This document shows, in pieces, positions 604 through 53,050 of a stretch of 55,996 nucleotides of DNA. A program made the translations under genes and the position numbers. Positions within the stretch are counted from its first letter, which is position 1. Every line of letters starts with the position of its first letter. This stretch comes from Dehalococcoidales bacterium. Its GTDB lineage: Bacteria; Chloroflexota; Dehalococcoidia; Dehalococcoidales; BS750m-G39. The stretch is taken from contig JAGMCH010000044.1 of assembly GCA_023129255.1 (NCBI GenBank), positions 1 to 55,996 of the forward strand, read 5' to 3'. A model generated the notes under the pieces. The model did no database searches. It was given only the letters and a program-made list of their open reading frames with translations, and was not told the origin of the DNA.

Positions 604-699
604 GCAGAGGGAAGGGGAGAGTCAAAGAGGGGCGTTAGCCCCCTCTTTTAAAAACCTTCCCCCTCTCCAAGAGTGGAGAGGGGGACACAGGGGGTAAGG

Positions 700-1032
700 T
701 TGATAAAAGATATAAAGTTCAACGAAAAGGGGCTTATCCCGGCGATAGCCCAGGATGCCGATACCGGCGAAGTGCTGATGATGGCTTATATGAACGAGGA
801 AGCGCTGCGCCGGACTCTGTCCAGCGGTGAAGCCTGGTTCTACAGTCGCAGCCGGCAGGAGCTGTGGCACAAAGGGGAGACCTCGGGCAGCACCATCAAG
901 GTACGTTCCATATGGAAGGACTGCGATAGCGATACCATCTTGATTAAAGGGAAAGCCAGCGGTCCGGTATGCCACACCGGCAACAAGACCTGCTTCTTTC
1001 AGGAGCTAACCGAAGCCGATGTGGAAGGCTGA
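700..1032 (+). CDS. hisI: phosphoribosyl-AMP cyclohydrolase HisI
   Basis: ORF 673..1032 carries GLIPAIAQD, MMAYMNEEAL, FYSRSRQELWHKGETSG, DCDSD and CHTG..TCF, as in PRA-CH. The GTG at 673 lies inside a repeat hairpin. The in-frame TTG at 700, preceded by GGGGGTAAGG, is the more plausible start. Confidence 0.85.
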   Translation: MIKDIKFNEKGLIPAIAQDADTGEVLMMAYMNEEALRRTLSSGEAWFYSRSRQELWHKGETSGSTIKVRSIWKDCDSDTILIKGKASGPVCHTGNKTCFFQELTEADVEG

Positions 1033-3498: not shown

Positions 3499-3625
3499 TT
3501 TATCTACCTCTCCCCCTCCCCCAAAATAAATAAAGGGTGTTTAAGAGGGGCGCTAGCGCCTATGGGGCGGGAGGGTGGGAAGAAAAACAAAAGTTAAAAC
3601 AGGGGAGGTGGGGGTGATAATAAAT
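3499..3625. repeat. mosaic intergenic repeat (partial reverse tail/H2 arm plus a forward G-type half unit)
   Basis: tttatctacctctccccctccccc is a reverse-complement tail plus hairpin arm. gggtgtttaagaggggcgctagcgcc, then GGGGCGGGAGGGTGGG, then aaaacaggggaggtgggggtgataa matches the other copies (see findings). Boundaries are approximate. Confidence 0.7.
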
Positions 3626-4535: not shown

Positions 4536-4699
4536 TAGGGCATACCTTTGTCAGTCTTTTCCAATGTGCCAATCCAATTAACATTGAAATCTTAGTTGTT
4601 GTCCATTTTATGGAAAACTTCAATATTGCGCCTGTGCTCAGTTGCATACCAACACCACGTTCTTCTCAAAAATCGTAACCGCACTTCATAAGCGAGGGT

Positions 4700-4772
4700 A
4701 TCTAAGAGAGGCGGAAGCCCCTCTTTTTTATTATCCCTCCCCCTCTCCCTTGAGGGAGAGGGGGATTAAGGT
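4700..4772 (+). repeat. E-type intergenic repeat (H1 hairpin + T-tract, H2 hairpin, short tail)
   Basis: aagagaggcggaagcccctctttttt is followed by ccctccccctctcccttgagggagagggggattaagg. Confidence 0.75.
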
Positions 4773-4869
4773 CAAAGACTCTTCGAGGAATGAGGTAGAA
4801 TCATTAGACATGAAGTTCTGCCTTAAAGCTGCTATAGTATAAACTTAATTATGTTTTTTACCAGAGTGA

Positions 4870-5784: not shown

Positions 5785-5884
5785 AGGATTGATATTGCTT
5801 GTCAACCTCGCCCCCCTAATTTTATATTTATTAACTATTAACCCCATCCCCTTTGGTTCTTAATAGGGGGTAACTAAGTTTGTA

Positions 5885-6016
5885 GGGTGTTTAAGAGGGG
5901 CGCAAGCCCCTCTTTTTATTATCCTCCCCCTCCCCCTTGAGGGAGAGGGGGATTAAGTCGGGGTCCCCGAAAATCTTGATTTTTGGGGTAAATTAAGGGG
6001 GTGAGGGTGCTATGAT
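5885..6016 (+). repeat. E-type intergenic repeat carrying a 34-nt internal insertion
   Basis: gggtgtttaagaggggcgcaagcccctcttttt, then cctccccctcccccttgagggagagggggattaag, then a 34-nt insert, then attaagggggtgagggtg. Confidence 0.75.
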
Positions 6017-6026
6017 AACTAATGAG

Positions 6027-10203: not shown

Positions 10204-10249
10204 GCCAGTAAGGCTCTACCGGTTTGAGGTGAGGAGGTATAAATAAAGG
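10202..10249 (+). repeat. 48-bp direct repeat, copy 2 (orphan relic of the amrA 3' end)
   Basis: gagccagtaaggctctaccggtttgaggtgaggaggtataaataaagg still reads EPVRLYRFEVRRYK-stop but has no upstream ORF. The TGA of the nuclease ORF straddles its left edge. Confidence 0.9.
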
Positions 10250-10336
10250 GGATAGATTGAAGGGGCGAAGCCCCTCTTACCAAATAATTCCCCCTCTCCT
10301 TTGAAGGAGAGGGGGACACAGGGGGTGAGGATGATT
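10250..10336 (+). repeat. E-type intergenic repeat
   Basis: ggatagattgaaggggcgaagcccctctt, then ccccctctcctttgaaggagaggggg, then acacagggggtgagg, ending 2 nt before the rarA ATG region. Confidence 0.8.
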
Positions 10337-10337
10337 T

Positions 10338-11702
10338 ATGGATTTATTTGAATACCAGTTTCAGCAAGAGAAAAACCAGGAGGCACCGCTGGCAGCCAGG
10401 ATGAGACCGGGCGCCCTGCACGAGTTCGTGGGACAGGAGCACCTGATAGGTGAAGGGCATGTGTTAAGAAAGGCTATTGAAGCCGGCAAGGTGCCGTCTA
10501 TTATCCTGTGGGGTCCCACCGGCAGCGGCAAAACTACCATGGCGTACATCATCGCCAATACCACCGAGTCGCACTTCAGCCCGGTAAGTGCCGTCAGCGC
10601 TGGCGTGGCTGACCTGCGCCGGATAATTGAGGAGGCAAAAGAACGCCGTAAACTTTATCAGCAGACAACAATCCTCTTTATAGACGAGATTCATCGCTTC
10701 AACAAGGCGCAGCAGGATGCCGTTCTGCCCTTCGTTGAGGACGGAACCATCACCCTTATCGGTGCTACCACCGAAAACCCCTCGTTTGAGGTTATCTCCC
10801 CCCTCCTCTCCCGCTGCCAGGTTCTCGCCCTGAATCCCCTCACCGAGGATGAAATTCAGATCATCATCATGAGAGCCTTAAAGGACGAACTGAAGGGTCT
10901 GGGCAAACTGAATGTAGAGCTGGACGATGATGCCATGCTCCGCCTTATTATGATGTCAAACAAGGATGCCCGGGTTGCCCTCAATGCCCTGGAGATAGCC
11001 GCTACCACTACGCCGCCTGACGCCGAGGGGAAGCGCCGTATCTCACTAACCACCATTGAGGATGCCATCCAGCACCGGGCTTTGCCCTACGACAAAGGGG
11101 GAGAGCGCCACTACGACATTATCTCCGCCCTGCACAAGTCGATGCGAGGCTCAGACCCCGATGCTTCCCTTTACTGGCTGGCAAGGATGCTGGAGGCGGG
11201 GGAAAGCCCCCTCTACATTGCCCGCCGCCTGGTTCGCTTCGCCTCAGAGGATATAGGCATGGCTGACCCCCAGGCACTGGTGTTAGCTATGGCTGCCCAG
11301 CAAGCCGTCCACTTCATCGGCATGCCTGAGGGCAATCTGGCTCTGGCTGAGGCAGTGGTCTACCTGGCTACCGCCCCTAAAAGCAACTCGCTGTATCAGG
11401 CCTACTCTCAGGTCCAGGAGGAAATCGAACAAGGACCCGACGAGCAGGTGCCTATGCACCTTCGCAATCCGGTGACGCCGCTAATGAAAGAAATGGGTTA
11501 TGGCAAGGGATATAAACATGCTCACGACTACCCAGAGCACTTCGCCGGGCAGCAGAACCTGCCCGATTCCCTTAAAGGCAAACATTATTATACCCCCGGT
11601 GACCAAGGATATGAGAAGCAGGTCGCCGAGCGGCTCAAAGCCTGGTGGCAAGGCATCAAGCAACCAAAAAAAGCTAAAAGAAAGAAGAAGGCTTCAAGCT
11701 AA
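10338..11702 (+). CDS. rarA: replication-associated recombination protein A (MgsA/RarA AAA+ ATPase)
   Basis: Walker A GPTGSGKTT, FIDEIHRFNK, and a C-terminal HYD.ISALHKSMRGSDPDASLYWLARMLEAGE block typical of RarA. Confidence 0.9.
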   Translation: MDLFEYQFQQEKNQEAPLAARMRPGALHEFVGQEHLIGEGHVLRKAIEAGKVPSIILWGPTGSGKTTMAYIIANTTESHFSPVSAVSAGVADLRRIIEEAKERRKLYQQTTILFIDEIHRFNKAQQDAVLPFVEDGTITLIGATTENPSFEVISPLLSRCQVLALNPLTEDEIQIIIMRALKDELKGLGKLNVELDDDAMLRLIMMSNKDARVALNALEIAATTTPPDAEGKRRISLTTIEDAIQHRALPYDKGGERHYDIISALHKSMRGSDPDASLYWLARMLEAGESPLYIARRLVRFASEDIGMADPQALVLAMAAQQAVHFIGMPEGNLALAEAVVYLATAPKSNSLYQAYSQVQEEIEQGPDEQVPMHLRNPVTPLMKEMGYGKGYKHAHDYPEHFAGQQNLPDSLKGKHYYTPGDQGYEKQVAERLKAWWQGIKQPKKAKRKKKASS

Positions 11703-15270: not shown

Positions 15271-15484
15271 TTGACCTCACCCCCCTCTCCCTGTTTTTAA
15301 CCTAGCTCTTATTTCCCACCCAAACCCACCCTACAGGGGCTAGCCCCCTTAACTTCAAGGAGGAGTAAAGCCCCCATATACTTTTTGGAAGGGGGAGTCT
15401 TAGAGGGGCGTCAGCCCCTCTTTTCTATCCCTCCCCCTCTCCCTTGAGGGAGAGGGGGATTAAGGGGGTGAGGGTGATAAAATA
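15271..15484. repeat. composite intergenic repeat: reverse G-type half unit (15271..15350) plus forward E-type unit (15398..15484)
   Basis: ttgacctcacccccctctccctgtttttaa...tttcccacccaaacccaccctacaggggctagccccc is followed by agaggggcgtcagcccctctttt, ccccctctcccttgagggagaggggg and attaagggggtgagggtgataaaat. Confidence 0.8.
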
Positions 15485-15583
15485 AAGATAAACCCTCACC
15501 AGATAGACTTGCCTATGTGATTGGCAATATGCTATGATAAATAGCACTTATACTCAAATCTGGTTTACAGGTTCGGTACTCCA

Positions 15584-23400: not shown

Positions 23401-23404
23401 TCAC

Positions 23405-23522
23405 AGAGAGTCAAAGAGAGGCTTCGCCTCTCTTATACAACTACTTCCCCCTCCCTTACAAGGGAGGGGGATAAAGGGGGAGGGTTGCTAAGTAAAATAT
23501 CCAAGGCGGTGAGGTAGATAAA
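23405..23522 (+). repeat. E-type intergenic repeat with a second tail copy
   Basis: gagagtcaaagagaggcttcgcctctctt, then ccccctcccttacaagggaggggg, then ataaagggggaggg, then ggcggtgaggtagataaa, ending 4 nt before the ATG at 23527. Confidence 0.75.
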
Positions 23523-23526
23523 CCCC

Positions 23527-24372
23527 ATGAAAGAAATTAAAACCAGCGCCATCACCCAAGCCATAGCCCGCCTCTGCCAGGAGGCGAACTTCGGGCTGGG
23601 AGAGGACGTACTTTCAGCCCTCAAGCAAGCTCAGAAAACCGAGCAGTCGCCGCTGGGAAGAGAGGTCTTAAGCCAGCTTATAGAGAACGCCCGCATTGCC
23701 CAAGAGGAGCGTCGGCCACTGTGTCAGGACTGTGGCACAGCGGTGGTCTTCCTGGAAATAGGTCAGGAAATTCACATTACCGGCGGCGACCTAAACGCCG
23801 CCGTTAAAGAAGGGGTGCGCCAGGGCTATGCTGAAGGCTACCTTAGAAAAGCAATGGTCAGCCAGCCCTTTTCATCCCGAATAAATACCAAAGATAACAC
23901 TCCCCCCGTTATCCACGCTGAGATAGTCGCCGGCGACAAGCTGAAAATTACTGTCATGCCCAAGGGAGGCGGGGCTGAGAATATGAGCCGGCTGGCTATG
24001 CTCATGCCCAGTGATGGAAGGCAAGGCATCATCGACCTGGTGGTGAAAACTGTTGATGACGCCGGCGGTAACTCCTGCCCCCCGCTGATTATCGGGATGG
24101 GCATTGGGGGGACAGCAGAAAAGGCAATGCTGCTGGCCAAGAAGGCACTGCTGAGAAAGGTAGCCCAGCCCAACCCCGACCCCGAGATTGCCGAGCTGGA
24201 GAAGGAGATTCTAGCCCAAGTAAATGCTCTGGGCATCGGGCCGATGGGCTTTGGCGGTAACACCACCGCCCTGGCCGTCCATGCCGAGGTCATGCCCACC
24301 CATATCACCAGCCTGCCAGTAGCGGTCAACCTCCAGTGCCACAGCGCCCGCCATAAGGAGGCTATACTATAA
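23527..24372 (+). CDS. class I (Fe-S) fumarate hydratase, alpha subunit (N-terminal domain type)
   Basis: 281 aa. PLCQDCGTAVVF, MPKGGGAEN and GGTAEKA motifs of the Fe-S hydro-lyase alpha family (FumA/TtdA type). Confidence 0.85.
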   Translation: MKEIKTSAITQAIARLCQEANFGLGEDVLSALKQAQKTEQSPLGREVLSQLIENARIAQEERRPLCQDCGTAVVFLEIGQEIHITGGDLNAAVKEGVRQGYAEGYLRKAMVSQPFSSRINTKDNTPPVIHAEIVAGDKLKITVMPKGGGAENMSRLAMLMPSDGRQGIIDLVVKTVDDAGGNSCPPLIIGMGIGGTAEKAMLLAKKALLRKVAQPNPDPEIAELEKEILAQVNALGIGPMGFGGNTTALAVHAEVMPTHITSLPVAVNLQCHSARHKEAIL

Positions 24373-24545
24373 GGGGTAGATTGAAGGGGCGAAGCCCCCT
24401 CCCCTATCCCTTTTATATCTTTTCCCGCCCGCCACCCTTAAGGAGGGGGATAAAGGGAGAGTTGAAGAGAGGCGAAGCCTCTTTTGGGAGGGTGGGTGGG
24501 AAGAAAGACATAAATTAAAAGCGGGGTGGGGGAAAGGCAACTAAA
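24371..24545. repeat. composite intergenic repeat separating the two fumarase subunit genes
   Basis: aaggggtagattgaaggggcgaagcccc, then a reverse G arm cttttcccgcccgccaccctt, then gaagagaggcgaagcctctttt, then GGGAGGGTGGGTGGGaagaaag, then aaaagcggggtggggg. Confidence 0.8.
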
Positions 24546-29480: not shown

Positions 29481-29576
29481 GTCAGAGGGAGTTTGAGAGG
29501 GGCTTCGCCCCTCTTTTTTAATTATCTCCCCCTCTCCTTTGAAGGAGAGGGGGATTAAGGGGGTGAGGTAGATAAA
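29481..29576 (+). repeat. E-type intergenic repeat
   Basis: gtcagagggagtttgagaggggcttcgcccctctttttt, then ccccctctcctttgaaggagaggggg, then attaagggggtgaggtagataaag. Confidence 0.8.
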
Positions 29577-32537: not shown

Positions 32538-32599
32538 CTATGCTAACCCCCATTTGATTTATCAACCCAATTTCACCTGTTTGTGATGACGCTATGTAC

Positions 32600-32980
32600 T
32601 TAAAGTCCCCAAAAACCCCCGTCTTTCTTCTTCCTTTTAGCCTTCTTATCTGCAATCTCTTTGGTTTTCTTCTCAAAATAGCTTTGAGGTATTGCCTTTG
32701 CTGGAGGGCCTTTGGCTTTTGTGGCAGGAGTCAGACCATACTTGCGTCTAAACTCACCGTCAGTCATACTGCCCTTTCGGGTGTTGCAAGGCCCACATAT
32801 GAGTTGAAGGTTGCGTATTTTATTCGACCCATCACGACTAATCGGCGTTTTATGGTCAACATGCAAATAAGCTAGACCAAGCTTTCTACCACAGTACATA
32901 CATCGCCCTTTCTGAGAGTCAAACAACAATTTTTGCTCTGTGGTTCCAACATGCTTTCGCCGTGTCTCCCCAAATATCAT
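32600..32980 (-). CDS. HNH endonuclease (small, zinc-finger type)
   Basis: CMYCGRKL...HVDHKTP...N...LICGPCNTRKG (CxxC...HxDH...N...CxxCN). Lys-rich C-terminal tail. AT-richer than the flanking nuo genes. Confidence 0.85.
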   Translation of the reverse strand: MIFGETRRKHVGTTEQKLLFDSQKGRCMYCGRKLGLAYLHVDHKTPISRDGSNKIRNLQLICGPCNTRKGSMTDGEFRRKYGLTPATKAKGPPAKAIPQSYFEKKTKEIADKKAKRKKKDGGFWGL

Positions 32981-33197
32981 ATCTACCTCACCCCCTGTAT
33001 CCCCCTCTCCTTCAAAGGAGAGGGGGAGGGATTTTTTGTAAGAGGGGCTTCGCCTCTCTCTAACTCTCCTTTAACCTTTTCTCCCCCCCCAAGGAGAAGA
33101 GTCTTTAGAGAAGGGGCTTCGCCCCCTCTCTTCCCTTCACTCCCCCTTCCCTTGGTAAGGGAAGGGGGTCAGGGGGATAGGTTGCTAGATAATCTCC
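32981..33197. repeat. two E-type repeats in inverted, tail-out orientation between nuoL and the HNH gene
   Basis: The reverse unit at 32981..33062 has its tail ggtgaggtagat abutting the HNH ATG. The forward unit at 33100..33195 reads agagaaggggcttcgccccctctct, ctcccccttcccttggtaagggaaggggg, tcagggggataggttgctagataa. Confidence 0.8.
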
Positions 33198-40685: not shown

Positions 40686-40822
40686 TCACCCTATAGGGGT
40701 TGGCACCCCTCTTAAACATCCCCTAAGGTGGAGATAAAAGCAAAGCCTTATAGAGCGGGAGGAAAACTTAATGGGTGGGAGGGTGGGAAAAAAGAGATAA
40801 TTTAAAAGTGGGGGGTGGGGAC
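40686..40822 (+). repeat. G-type repeat unit (left arm truncated) with tail
   Basis: tttcaccctataggggttggcacccctcttaaacatcccc...caaagccttatagagcggga...GGGTGGGAGGGTGGGaaaaaag...aaaagtggggggtgggg is homologous to 46793..46907. Confidence 0.8.
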
Positions 40823-40915
40823 AATGCCGCCCATATTGACCTTATCCCAATAACCAAATATCATAATGAATTGACAATATAGGCTAAAACTGGCTATTAT
40901 CCAGGAGCAAGATAG

Positions 40916-46792: not shown

Positions 46793-46907
46793 CTTCCCAC
46801 CCTCCCACCCTAAAGGGGTTAGCACCCTCTTACACACTCCCTTAAAACAGGGGGTTAAGGACAAAGCCTTTGAGGGCGGGTTGGGTGGGAAAAAAACTTA
46901 ATGGGGG
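46793..46907 (+). repeat. complete G-type repeat unit bounded by inverted G4-type arms
   Basis: cttCCCACCCTCCCACCCtaaaggggttagcaccctcttacacactcccttaaaacagggggttaaggacaaagcctttgaGGGCGGGTTGGGTGGGaaaaaaacttaatggggg. It abuts the 3' end of tRNA-Ala. Confidence 0.85.
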
Positions 46908-52911: not shown

Positions 52912-53050
52912 TTGACCCCACACCCTCCCTGTTTTTAGTCGTCTTTTTCCCCTACCCACCCACCCTCAAAGGCTTTGCCCCTAAATTCCTATCTTTATTG
53001 GGTGAAGAGGGGCACCAGCCCCTATAGGGCGGGAGGGTGGGAAGGGGTTA
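52912..53050 (-). repeat. complete G-type repeat unit, inverted relative to 46793..46907, with a reverse tail
   Basis: ttgaccccacaccctccctgtttttag...tttttCCCCTACCCACCCACCCtcaaaggctttgcccc...gaagaggggcaccagcccctataGGGCGGGAGGGTGGGaagg. Confidence 0.85.

Follow-up and report, generated by a model that had tools for sequence, protein, structure and literature searches.

The closest described relative of the repeat analysed here is an Escherichia coli element called BoxC, PIT element or TMECO, reportedly described as a triplex motif by Hoyne, Maher and co-workers in 2000. It is a class II purine-motif intrastrand triplex motif, stable as a triplex by CD and NMR, with 18 imino signals that fit a triplex and not a quadruplex (Holder 2015, PMC4666352). 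A stable triplex was not shown by in vivo DMS footprinting, RNA does not form purine-motif triplexes, the motif was found to act neither as promoter nor as terminator nor in any other role, and no mobile-element association is reported; instability has been reported around TMECO (PMC4666352). A G-quadruplex/hairpin switch has also been proposed for BoxC (bioRxiv 10.1101/032615). Using a BoxC sequence as the query, we found matches in 5409 of 5426 E. coli genomes, at a median of 18 places per genome. Near fabI, the RefSeq table of MG1655 lists CDS only and no curated repeat features.

In the window, the whole 55,996-nt stretch of DNA that we analysed, we identified a non-coding, structure-defined DNA repeat of ~95 bp that is probably a lineage-specific, two-module version of the BoxC/PIT/TMECO intrastrand triplex motifs. 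The core of this unit has the same strand order as the E. coli motif (C-rich arm, short loop, complementary G-rich arm, 3-nt loop and G-rich mirror strand) and the same triad alphabet, and the two share the core words CCCTCTCCC / GGGAGAGGG / GGGTGAGGG, down to the T followed by A in the third strand. By inspection, the TMECO pattern as published, CCCTCNCCC-N3-6-GGGNGAGGG-N3-GGGNGAGGG, was unmatched, though the copy at 15432 has the 9-nt core words, because three extra triads lengthen the stems and the N3 second loop then fails. In most copies, the outer position is A/T rather than TMECO's G/C.

An earlier note on this DNA had not recognised the repeat as a described family. Given that the core module is of the BoxC/PIT/TMECO kind (PMC4666352), this holds for the composite unit only. 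The Rfam search that the note had called for matched no family to the repeat: with Rfam 15 at gathering thresholds, two tRNAs alone reached gathering in the window, and a permissive scan of 15340-15540 gave nothing near a gathering score (best, PyrR, 27 bits versus 54). A literature search on Dehalococcoidia repeats gave nothing relevant.

Anatomy and copies of the composite unit

A de novo repeat search of the window recovered the family as D1 (8 copies of 65 nt, overlapped by D2-D4), and the hairpin-B pattern CCCCCTCTCC-N6-GGAGAGGGGG, with at most 2 mismatches, occurred 7 times against 0.00 expected from 100 dinucleotide-preserving shuffles. We then scanned the window, with filters off, using a covariance model for which 9 of the 10 seeds came from other genomes and the tenth was the window copy 29483-29576. 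This returned 9 full-length copies (53-105 bits, E 5e-14 to 1e-29), 1 degenerate copy and 1 weak fragment, all of them intergenic; no copy was found past 33.2 kb in the 55,996 nt. The dispersed repeat is therefore real, with a copy wherever the earlier note had placed one, and its count of at least 10 is fair when the degenerate copy 24370-24472 is included. The copies also bear out its description of a modular, mosaic intergenic repeat. Conservation runs from a G-rich stretch 5' of hairpin A to T-W-G-M-TAAA past the tail and falls to background outside both ends, giving a sharp-ended unit of ~95 nt where ~85 nt had been estimated by eye.

Along the G-rich strand, the unit reads H1-R1-Y1, a spacer of ~10 nt, Y2-R2-H2 and GATAAA (Table 1). 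Hairpin B, previously put at 10-11 bp, has 12 bp including its T-A end pairs. By sequence, hairpin B (TCCCCCTCTCCT-n4-AGGAGAGGGGGA) and the G-rich tail (AGGGGGTGAGGT) together are a class II purine-motif intrastrand triplex motif. The tail is more than an appendix: it mirrors the 3' purine arm of hairpin B with G·G, A·A and T·A, and co-varies with it like a purine-motif third strand. Hairpin A and its 5' G-rich flank read, with weaker support, as a class I triplex motif, so that a single strand of the unit would carry both triplex motifs, followed by the GATAAA trailer. The last base of the focal H2 is a G that matches the first base of R2, also G; where R2 begins with A, the final base of H2 is A or T. 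Folded as single-stranded DNA with ViennaRNA, a calculation that shows only the two hairpins, the focal unit has an MFE of -25 kcal/mol (z = -3.65).

Table 1. Parts of the focal unit and copies of the repeat in the window (CM, covariance model).
Feature	Coordinates	Strand	Evidence or score
H1 GGGGAGT, proposed reverse-Hoogsteen strand of class I motif	15392..15398	+	mirrors R1, 7/7 allowed triads, 3-nt loop
Hairpin A: R1 AGAGGGG 15402-15408, loop CGTCAG, Y1 CCCCTCT 15415-15421	15402..15421	+	covariation, helix 1
Inter-hairpin spacer TTTCTATCCC	15422..15431	+	family mode 10 nt, range 8-13 nt
Hairpin B: Y2 TCCCCCTCTCCC 15432-15443, loop TTGA, R2 GGGAGAGGGGGA 15448-15459	15432..15459	+	12 bp, 0 mismatches
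H2 ('G-rich tail') AGGGGGTGAGGG, proposed class II reverse-Hoogsteen third strand	15463..15474	+	12/12 triads against R2 after 3-nt loop TTA
3' trailer TGATAAA	15475..15481	+	model positions 88-94 conserved; background by about position 97
Focal unit, full composite copy	15389..15481	+	CM R1 87.7 bits, E 1.6e-24
Full unit after hisA, between convergent genes	613..707	+	CM 72.7 bits; H1 8/9, H2 10/12 allowed triads
Fragment, tail and trailer only	3499..3535	-	CM 13.4 bits, E 0.06
Unit with 16-nt palindrome GTCAAAGACTCTTCGA between R2 and degenerate H2 (about 4787-4800)	4692..4779	+	CM 58.1 bits
Unit with 34-nt hairpin inserted in loop 2	5881..6014	+	CM 61.4 bits (5881-5971) and 14.8 bits (tail 5982-6014)
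Full unit directly upstream of rarA-like start codon (10338)	10246..10338	+	CM 87.1 bits; H2 12/12
Variant unit (R2 AGGGAGGGGGAT, H2 AAGGGGGAGGGT) with second tail-like piece 23493-23522	23402..23522	+	CM 71.8 bits (23402-23492)
Degenerate unit between fumarate hydratase alpha and beta genes	24370..24472	+	CM 28.7 bits, E 1.3e-6
Full unit downstream of nuoN, antisense to both flanking genes	29483..29576	+	CM 104.6 bits
Full unit, nuo sense orientation	32978..33072	-	CM 91.9 bits; H1 7/7, H2 12/12
Variant unit (R2 AAGGGAAGGGGG, H2 GGGGGATAGGTT)	33097..33189	+	CM 53.2 bits; H1 9/10, H2 11/12

In the copy at 5881..6014, the loop-2 insert is flanked by ATTAAG repeats and H2 (AGGGGGTGAGGG) is kept downstream; this displaced H2 scores 12/12 allowed triads 43 nt downstream (also seen as L124:342). 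The copy at 23402..23522 lies upstream of the fumarate hydratase alpha gene and has an H2 of 11/12, its A position shifted in step with R2. The degenerate copy abuts a G4-type unit, and its two class I motifs reach 7/7 (24383) and 8/8 (24465). In the copy at 32978..33072, 4 nt separate the end of the H2 tail from the start codon (ATG) of an inserted HNH gene; the copy at 33097..33189 stands back to back with it, just past the nuoL stop. A palindrome insert of the type found in the copy at 4692..4779 also occurs at locus L053.

Covariation of arms and third strands

Watson-Crick covariation in the family preserves the polarity of the arms. Across 109 copies in an alignment fitted to the covariance model, which favours pairing, 96.9% of cells pair and 241 cells are changed on both sides, a result that 0 of 500 shuffles reached; in helix 3 (hairpin B), 99.2% of cells pair. 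Structure-preserving stem changes had been claimed earlier from a few compensatory examples, and real ones do exist (AAAGAGAGGC/GCCTCTCTT at 23413), although the cited gagaggcggaagcccctc has an A.C mismatch and is not one of them. Outside the loop-closing pair, 58 of 60 double changes in hairpin B are CG<->UA and so keep the homopurine arm. A plain hairpin needs no homopurine arm.

We next scored the window copies against the rules for class II motifs. The hairpin (stem 6-15 nt, loop 1-6 nt, at most 1 mismatch) is present in 9 copies as a 12-nt Y2/R2 stem with a 4-nt loop and 0-1 mismatch. The antiparallel third strand, 1-6 nt downstream and limited to G·G-C, A·A-T and T·A-T triads, scores 10-12/12: after a 3-nt loop, R2 and H2 give 12/12 allowed triads in four copies and 10-11/12 in the others. 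For class I, the G-rich mirror strand 1-6 nt upstream of the hairpin-A purine arm scores 7/7, 8/9, 7/8, 9/10 and 7/7, and H1 against R1 reaches 7/7 to 9/10 in most copies.

Across the wider family, third strands changed together with their purine arms. Distinct class II (R,H) pairs contained 251/273 allowed triads against a mean of 176 with H permuted (0/5000 permutations reached this), and distinct class I pairs 261/301 against a permuted mean of 230 (0/5000); copies within a subfamily are related by descent and these tests ignore kinship, so they overstate the number of independent events. In the distinct class II pairs, R=A faces H=A/T in 80 of 85 cases. Held in the fixed model register, class II gave 89.8% allowed triads versus 42-54% when slid, and class I 66.7% versus 36-58%. 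With the register optimised, and with controls that used 167 and 179 distinct copies for class II and class I, respectively, class II scored 0.871 versus 0.755 when the flank came from a copy with another R, and class I 0.784 versus 0.681 for such flanks (controls overall, 0.60-0.69); wrong-side controls scored 0.33-0.36. Class II also scored above its shuffled controls.

Each of at least 7 purine-arm variants is matched by a third strand of its own. Of 181 distinct units, 133 have an adjacent H2 in which no more than one triad is disallowed, leaving about a quarter without one, and for class I 93 of 179 distinct copies stay within the same limit. Of the two third strands, that of class I is the weaker (67-78% allowed triads), many copies having C or A opposite G. 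We also looked for third strands displaced by an insertion in loop 2; two cases clearly reach 12/12, but the total of 3 of 48 does not exceed the 2 of the reversed-flank control. H positions 6-8 read TGA in 108 of 119 cases, where AGA, TGT and AGT would equally satisfy the triplex rules, a preference that implies a constraint past the simple triad rule, be it descent, a protein or stacking preferences.

Turnover and distribution

The spacer between nuoL and nuoM captures the turnover of these units. Among 58 relatives, 22 have an empty spacer (5-29 nt), 24 have at least one unit and one has a remnant. Non-empty sites hold one to three units, differing cargo genes, or both, and the same site holds different cargo ORFs in different relatives, a turnover reminiscent of the instability around TMECO; cargo near units includes HNH, NUDIX, a methyltransferase-like membrane protein and unknown ORFs. 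Minus-strand units lie just past nuoN in the related nuo loci L128, L133, L143, L146, L156, L158, L168, L175 and others, in a position like that of the antisense window copy 29483..29576. At the strain level, no polymorphism was seen in a second sample contig and an NCBI MAG contig with identical proteins, neither of which differed at the units (L122 and L123, the same unit locus). The hisA-downstream site in L111 was set aside as an orthologous empty site; its neighbouring gene differs, so the comparison is not clean. The family thus has the placement expected of the purine-motif class II kind: intergenic, with no orientation bias and variable among relatives.

A scan of other genomes, as the earlier note had proposed, showed that the repeat is not confined to the window. 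The matches listed place the composite unit in many Dehalococcoidia-type MAGs and in a single phage fragment, which contains capsid genes. Three MAGs labelled Deltaproteobacteria have it too, through either mis-binning or transfer. Counted by itself, the class II module is found, T-G-A detail included, in at least 16 phylum-level groups in a sample of at least 120 stretches chosen by an exact hairpin-B stem, and the exact hairpin-B-plus-tail module is also present in Oscillatoria and Aerosakkonema. Units are paired back to back in inverted orientation in the window (32978-33189) as well as in L011, L046 and L105, and the class II module forms inverted doublets in Hymenobacter and in other phyla. 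A contig from a phage collection, L266, ends in units. The window also holds a companion family of canonical G3-N1-2 x4 motifs (8 versus 0.19 expected), and a G4-type member of it occupies the nuoL-nuoM site of L126, where L127 has a triplex-type unit.

Interpretation and comparison with known systems

Triplex formation by the unit is suggested by the physical work on its E. coli relative. Whenever the G-rich strand becomes single-stranded, in replication, in a transcription bubble or during repair, R1/Y1 and Y2/R2 would form Watson-Crick hairpins. H1 and H2 would then fold back antiparallel onto the purine arms via reverse-Hoogsteen G·G-C, A·A-T and T·A-T triads, placing class I and class II purine-motif triplexes side by side. 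Such folds could stall polymerases or draw repair or recombination and so make the neighbourhood a hot spot, which would explain the gain, loss and truncation of units and the small genes inserted with them. One may go further and suppose that the two-triplex fold is a selected functional state, recognised by a single-strand-specific mobilisation or recombination machinery that plants units and captures small promoterless genes in operon spacers of Dehalococcoidia and phages; we regard this extension as unlikely.

Action in RNA appears doubtful to us. Here, the unit would be an intercistronic element in which hairpin A ends or stabilises the upstream transcript, as intrinsic terminators or REP/BIME stabilisers do, and the next gene has its Shine-Dalgarno sequence controlled or provided by hairpin B with the tail. 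Consistent with this, GGGGGUGA could base-pair to the anti-SD CCUCCACU through a single G.U, four start codons (6022, 10338, 23527 and 32980) are 4-15 nt away from the tail, inserted ORFs (NUDIX in L189/L168, a 115-aa ORF in L131) begin right after an H2-like tail, and single-unit insertions upstream of nuoM are all in sense orientation, although these sites probably descend from one or a few events. A simple terminator scan flags hairpin A at 629, 4704, 5893 and 15402, yet a T-tract follows it in just 25 of 185 distinct copies (14%), and crude ORF calls place units sense to both flanking genes in 17 cases and antisense to both in 13, with no clear sense bias. Units also sit between divergent and convergent genes and inside the nuo and fumarate hydratase operons, and unit 29483 is antisense to both neighbours. 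The 'terminator-like' label of the earlier note thus fails as a family trait, the orientation not being tied to the upstream gene. A Shine-Dalgarno donor role for the tail suits four window copies and some cargo ORFs, but is contradicted by the antisense, divergent and convergent placements and by the native nuoM AGGAG, which filled nuoL-nuoM sites keep downstream of the unit. An RNA hairpin, moreover, needs neither homopurine/homopyrimidine arms nor a co-varying mirror third strand. Any use of H2 as an RBS by ORFs downstream, or of hairpin A to terminate transcripts, looks like co-option at individual sites, not the family's purpose; the sense-only nuoM insertions and the several ORFs that start right after H2 leave room for an RNA-level role. 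The orientation counts, together with the failure of purine-motif triplexes to form in RNA, point to action at the level of DNA rather than RNA.

It is similarly improbable that the unit is a miniature mobile element of REP/REPIN or MITE type, with hairpins recognised by a trans-acting ssDNA transposase (RAYT or IS200-IS605-like) and mirror symmetry as a by-product. Many sharp-ended copies, orthologous sites that are filled in some relatives and empty in others (in L176 the insertion lies between TAA...TAA), the inverted pairs and doublets, and the copies in the phage fragment are what such an element would give. Terminal inverted repeats are absent, however, the H1 region and the GATAAA trailer not being inverted repeats of each other, and filled versus empty nuoL-nuoM and nuoM-nuoN sites show no consistent target-site duplication (TAA...TAA occurs in L176 alone); a MITE would have both. 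The REP/BIME style proposed earlier also fails, as no conserved GTAG-type tetranucleotide tag appears on reading the consensus and the conservation profile. No transposase, RAYT included, was found among the 24 scanned of 96 ORFs in the 56-kb window, and the E. coli relative lacks a reported mobile-element association. This reading is compatible with, not opposed to, a triplex/hairpin fold as the recognised structure. Far less probable still is a switch in which the G-runs of R2+H2 (and H1+R1) form quadruplexes that compete with the hairpins. The strands are G-rich, the G3-N1-2 x4 companion family is in excess and shares the nuoL-nuoM site, and the idea has a precedent in E. coli; but A/T in H follows A in R in mirror register, a correspondence for which a quadruplex has no need, the C-rich arm keeps strict complementarity and co-varies, and the imino signals of the E. 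coli motif fit a triplex.

This repeat family bears on whether intrastrand DNA triplexes have any role in bacteria. The E. coli motif is almost invariant and so cannot show covariation; here, the third strand changes in step with the purine arm in at least 7 variants, which argues for the fold on evolutionary grounds and supplies natural mutants that are ready for biophysical study. If the two-triplex fold is indeed selected, the coupled changes of R and third strand would, as evolutionary covariation, be evidence for the importance of intramolecular DNA triplexes in living bacteria. As units mark spacers that gain, lose and truncate repeats and acquire small genes, they may serve as practical genome-plasticity markers in an uncultured, environmentally important lineage. 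Annotation could misread them as terminators, small RNAs or Shine-Dalgarno sequences, and they may cause contig breaks (compare L266). The occurrence of one module, with the same T-G-A detail, across at least 16 phylum-level groups calls for explanation.

Similar to the unit, REP, BIME and REPIN elements are short, abundant, intergenic, hairpin-forming, mosaic, strain-variable and sometimes arranged as inverted doublets. The unit differs in its homopurine/homopyrimidine arms and mirror third strand, which REPs lack, and in the absence of a BIME-type alternation of Y and Z REPs. Integron attC sites are defined by structure, act as folded single strands and adjoin small, variable, promoterless ORFs. 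The unit is likewise structure-defined, would also act as a folded single strand and is found beside small, variable, promoterless ORFs, an analogy of mechanism only: unlike attC, most units have no cargo, the proposed fold is a triplex and not an imperfect hairpin with extrahelical bases, no integrase was found among the 24 window ORFs scanned and no recombination was observed in the comparisons. ITxF motifs are of the same structural class and are likewise more frequent than in shuffled genomes. ITxF catalogues single motifs, whereas the unit is a fixed class I plus class II composite; the main text of the ITxF paper does not mention such a unit, nor do 'Chloroflexi' or 'Dehalococcoides' occur in it.

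BoxC/PIT/TMECO is closest, as both it and the unit are intergenic, have no orientation bias, form occasional inverted pairs and show local presence/absence and truncation between relatives. In contrast to the E. coli motif, the unit has stems of 12 triads rather than 9, fuses a second, class I motif (hairpin A and its 5' third strand) and a GATAAA trailer into ~95 nt, and has several subfamilies with coupled R/H changes. Its hosts here are Dehalococcoidia-type Chloroflexota and a phage, versus Proteobacteria for BoxC/PIT/TMECO, and it reaches a density of ~1 unit per 6 kb in the window, compared with 23 BoxC/PIT/TMECO copies in the 4.6 Mb of MG1655.

Architecture of the composite unit

The dispersed repeat reported in an earlier note at 15398-15484 proved real. 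A repeat search of the window grouped a 65-nt core in 8 copies with overlapping families, and the pattern CCCCCTCTCC-N6-GGAGAGGGGG (≤2 mismatches) occurred 7 times in the window, against 0.00 expected from shuffles. A covariance model built on 10 seed copies free of gaps, nine of which came from other genomes, and run on the window with filters off found nine full-length copies scoring 53-105 bits, recovering the copy coordinates of that note; zero copies lay beyond 33.2 kb. In a conservation profile, the conserved span runs from within the G-rich sequence ahead of the first hairpin (hairpin A) to just past T-W-G-M-TAAA, and because conservation begins and ends there, we take the unit to be ~95 nt with sharp ends. 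The copies sit among ordinary housekeeping genes: hisA, a radical SAM / AMMECR1 / Memo operon, rarA, folP, methylmalonyl-CoA carboxyltransferase, fumarate hydratase and nuoL-M-N. The window lies within a metagenome scaffold of 264.5 kb (ENA ERZ23498859, ZHAN22-2 scaffold_4). Its hisA shares 82% DNA identity with a contig of an uncultured Dehalococcoidales MAG, and its PyrG is identical to that on NCBI MAG GCA_030629395.1. Given this hisA match, and since composite units elsewhere fell almost entirely in MAGs with Dehalococcoidia-type or Chloroflexi labels among the matches listed, the host is most likely one of the Dehalococcoidia.

The G-rich tail is complementary to neither arm of the second hairpin (hairpin B); it reads as the 3' purine arm in mirror image, as a purine-motif (reverse-Hoogsteen) triple helix demands. 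In such a helix the third strand runs antiparallel to the purine strand and makes the triads G*G-C, A*A-T and T*A-T. In the window this register spans 12 positions: pyrimidine arm Y2 TCCCCCTCTCCT, loop TTGA, purine arm R2 AGGAGAGGGGGA, a 3-nt loop and the proposed third strand H2 AGGGGGTGAGGT, with 12/12 allowed triads in four copies and 10-11/12 in the others. A one-genome-per-species scan for the exact hairpin B stem returned at least 120 stretches, and in most matches listed GGGGGTGAGG follows hairpin B after 2-5 nt, or its complement precedes it.

In hairpin A the 5' arm is purine (AAGAGGGG) and the 3' arm pyrimidine; the G-rich stretch upstream, given as (GGGTGTT) in the earlier note, is a mirror of the purine arm. 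H1-loop-R1 combinations include GGGGTGT-cta-AGAGGGG, GGGGAGT-ctt-AGAGGGG, GGGGTAG-ctt-GAAGGGG and GGAGAGT-tag-AGAGAGG. Hairpin A and its 5' flank thus stand in class I order (third strand, purine strand, pyrimidine strand), and the unit reads H1-R1-Y1, spacer (mode 10 nt), Y2-R2-H2 (class II), GATAAA, with both putative triplexes on one strand.

Palindromic inserts sit exactly in loop 2, between R2 and H2, and the third strand is kept downstream of them. In copy 5881 the insert is a 34-nt hairpin with ATTAAG repeats on either side, a type also present in IMG/VR contig L266 (158) and genome stretch L006; in copy 4692 it is the 16-nt palindrome GTCAAAGACTCTTCGA, also seen in stretch L053. In the focal copy alone, tail GGTGAGGGT can pair with ACCCTCACC ~15 nt downstream (15492-15500), and the third hairpin that this may form would be a competitor of the triplex; downstream lies a promoter-like sequence.

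Coordinates of repeat copies and associated features (window unless a contig is named)
Feature	Position	Strand	Basis or detail
Full-length copy	613-707	+	covariance model
Full-length copy	4692-4779	+	covariance model
Full-length copy	5881-5971	+	covariance model
Full-length copy	10246-10338	+	covariance model
Full-length copy (focal)	15389-15481	+	covariance model
Full-length copy	23402-23492	+	covariance model
Full-length copy	29483-29576	+	covariance model
Full-length copy	33097-33189	+	covariance model
Full-length copy	32978-33072	-	covariance model
Degenerate copy	24370-24472		covariance model
Weak fragment	3499-3535		covariance model
Loop-2 insert, copy 5881	5958-5996		34-nt hairpin
Loop-2 insert, copy 4692	4770-4786		16-nt palindrome
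Possible third hairpin, focal copy	15467-15500		tail pairing
Promoter-like sequence	15509-15538		TTGCCT-18-TATGAT
nuoL-nuoM spacer	32538-33197		
HNH endonuclease gene, free-standing, 126 aa	32600-32980	-	Pfam HNH 4.9e-14; weak IscB/Cas9 HNH-domain matches
Second-family units	3530-3625, 24455-24545, 40745-40825, 46855-46900, 52995-53050	+	
Further G4 motifs	52949, 46796, 24164	-	
Composite units, contig L272	4312-4406, 4731-4826, 5309-5402, 7406-7499, 7644-7738		
Tandem array, stretch L056	1470-2391		209-bp units

Agreement between purine arms and proposed third strands

In an alignment of 109 copies, which is biased toward the covariance model, 96.9% of cells kept Watson-Crick pairing and 241 cells were changed on both sides; none of 500 shuffles matched this. 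Outside the loop-closing pair, 58 of 60 double changes in hairpin B exchanged CG and UA with one arm staying all-purine, and 65 of 82 in hairpin A kept purine/pyrimidine polarity, which a plain hairpin does not require. In the fixed model register, where the same bias applies, the share of allowed triads between R2 and H2 was 89.8%; sliding by 1-3 positions lowered it to 42-54%, and the highest of 1000 column permutations reached 87.2%. For R1 and H1 the share was 66.7%, compared with 36-58% after sliding and a permutation maximum of 61.9%. Among distinct (R,H) pairs, whose changes are not independent events because copies share descent, 251 of 273 class II positions were allowed (permuted mean 176) and 261 of 301 class I positions (permuted mean 230), values reached by 0 of 5000 permutations in either class.

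A further comparison, in which the controls had the same free choice of register, covered 167 distinct copies for class II and 179 for class I, drawn from 2 Mb of DNA. A copy's own flank read in mirror orientation scored 0.871 (class II) and 0.784 (class I), compared with 0.722 and 0.689 for the parallel reading, 0.755 and 0.681 for flanks borrowed from copies whose purine arm differs, and 0.600 and 0.602 for shuffled flanks; wrong-side flanks scored 0.33-0.36. At least seven purine-arm variants, which shared descent likewise keeps from being independent events, each carry their own matching third strand, for example (R / H, H reversed) AGGGGAAGGGGA / TGGGGTAGGGGA, AAGGGAGGGGGA / TTGGGAGGGGGA and GGGGAAGGGGGA / GGGGTAGGGGGA. 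The class I signal is clearly weaker than that of class II, and one subfamily keeps a systematic mismatch (GAAG opposite GATAG).

Turnover at nuo spacers and wider distribution

We compared 58 relatives whose nuoL-nuoM junction is intact (NuoM 80-94% identical): in 22 the spacer was 5-29 nt without a unit, and in 24 it held one to three units. In six, the spacer measures 117-157 nt and amounts essentially to one unit, which sits after the nuoL stop and ahead of nuoM's native ribosome-binding site, and one relative (L178) retains just the R2 3' end, H2 and trailer. Longer spacers contain unrelated small genes. With lengths of 5 to 1444 nt among close relatives (metagenome contigs L126-L205) and at least six unrelated small cargo genes, the spacer is a gene-insertion hot spot. 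Cargo in relatives includes a 115-aa ORF with no family assigned, a PEMT/ICMT-like membrane protein, a Bles03-like protein and a 50-aa hydrophobic peptide; the window's HNH gene was missing from all 58 related junctions. Two back-to-back units lie upstream of that gene and a remnant tail, GGGTTGATAAA, downstream. The nuoM-nuoN spacer was empty in 61 of 65 relatives, held one unit in L176 and, in three others, a unit followed directly by a NUDIX gene. The nuo spacers therefore show gain or loss of units.

The window also holds a second repeat family, with a hairpin-A-like stem, a canonical G-quadruplex motif (1-2-nt loops, e.g. GGGGCGGGAGGGTGGG), an A-rich AAGAAAAACAAAAGTTAAAA and a G-rich tail; its G4 motifs number 8 in the window against 0.19 expected. 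Contigs L126 and L127, each at ~94% NuoM identity to the window, have different repeat types at the same nuoL-nuoM site, the G4 type in L126 and the triplex type in L127.

Composite units scoring ≥50 bits occurred in 29 of the 120 species-representative loci listed, all labelled Dehalococcoidia, Dehalococcoidales, Dehalococcoidaceae or Chloroflexi except three Deltaproteobacteria (among matches listed); nearly all 65 such matches listed fall in those loci, the remainder coming from the window. Units were also found in many of 80 metagenome contigs encoding close NuoM relatives and in ~14 IMG/VR contigs, among them a phage fragment (L272, 3300033150_002971) with a major capsid protein, an SU10-type adaptor and five units between genes. 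Contig L266 has units at each end.

By itself, the class II module reaches much further: the exact hairpin B with its third strand spans at least 16 phylum-level groups (L001-L120), including Armatimonadota, Bacteroidota, Gemmatimonadota, Planctomycetota, Desulfobacterota, Gammaproteobacteria, Cyanobacteria, Acidobacteriota and others. Outside Chloroflexota, 61 of 74 exact hairpin matches listed have a third strand with ≥9/10 allowed triads. The informative third-strand positions read T-G-A in 108 of 119 matches listed, and because T-G-A prevails over the equally allowed A-G-A, T-G-T and A-G-T, more than the triad rule is conserved, pointing to descent, horizontal spread or a binding partner. 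The module forms inverted doublets in Hymenobacter and several other taxa, and an Anaerolineae MAG (L056) carries a tandem array with hairpin B nested in each unit within a longer stem, ACCTCACCCC...GGGGTGAGGT.

Alternative readings and the BoxC/PIT/TMECO kind

An RNA-level punctuation element is possible, at lower probability. Start codons at 6022, 10338, 23527 and 32980 lie 4-15 nt beyond the tail, and inserted ORFs in relatives also follow it; we regard this as local co-option. Where the nuoL-nuoM site is filled, nuoM keeps its native AGGAG downstream of the unit. A T-tract follows 25 of 185 distinct first hairpins and the tail mirrors R2 as a triplex third strand would, so the earlier description of a terminator plus tail did not stand. 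By crude ORF calls, units are sense to both neighbours in 17 cases, antisense to both in 13, between divergent genes in 12 and convergent in 5, with unit 29483 running antisense to nuoN. According to PMC4666352, RNA does not form purine-motif triplexes. Given the few T-tracts, the mixed orientations, the antisense unit and this property of RNA, we read the family as acting in DNA.

A REPIN/MITE-like mobile element, also possible but less probable, is compatible with the triplex fold as the recognised structure; the unit ends show no terminal inverted repeats in the conservation profile, and no consistent target-site duplication was found in the nuo spacers of relatives. We give similarly lower probability to a G-quadruplex switch. 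A two-module intrastrand-triplex repeat is the description that fits the element best, and in its favour we dropped a REP/BIME identity; of the earlier picture of a mosaic, structure-constrained REP/BIME-style repeat, the dispersed, mosaic and structure-constrained character stood. We infer triplex folding, any effect on replication or recombination and the mode of copy multiplication.

A similar sequence is known from enterobacteria: 5409 of 5426 complete E. coli genomes carry it, at a median of 18 places per genome. This E. coli sequence is BoxC, alias PIT element or TMECO (Holder et al. 2015, PMC4666352), a class II intrastrand triplex motif that forms a stable triplex as single-stranded DNA by CD and NMR, lacks promoter or terminator activity and orientation bias, and is tied to local genomic variability (PMC4666352). 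From the mirror third strand and this likeness, hairpin B with its G-rich tail is a lengthened form of an established motif type, and the unit fits the BoxC/PIT/TMECO kind better than REP/BIME. The T-G-A detail is common to BoxC and the L001-L120 module, and turnover of units at the nuo spacers matches the TMECO 'variable neighbourhood' (PMC4666352). Paired BoxC copies in E. coli lie on opposite strands, whereas both putative triplexes of the unit lie on the same strand.
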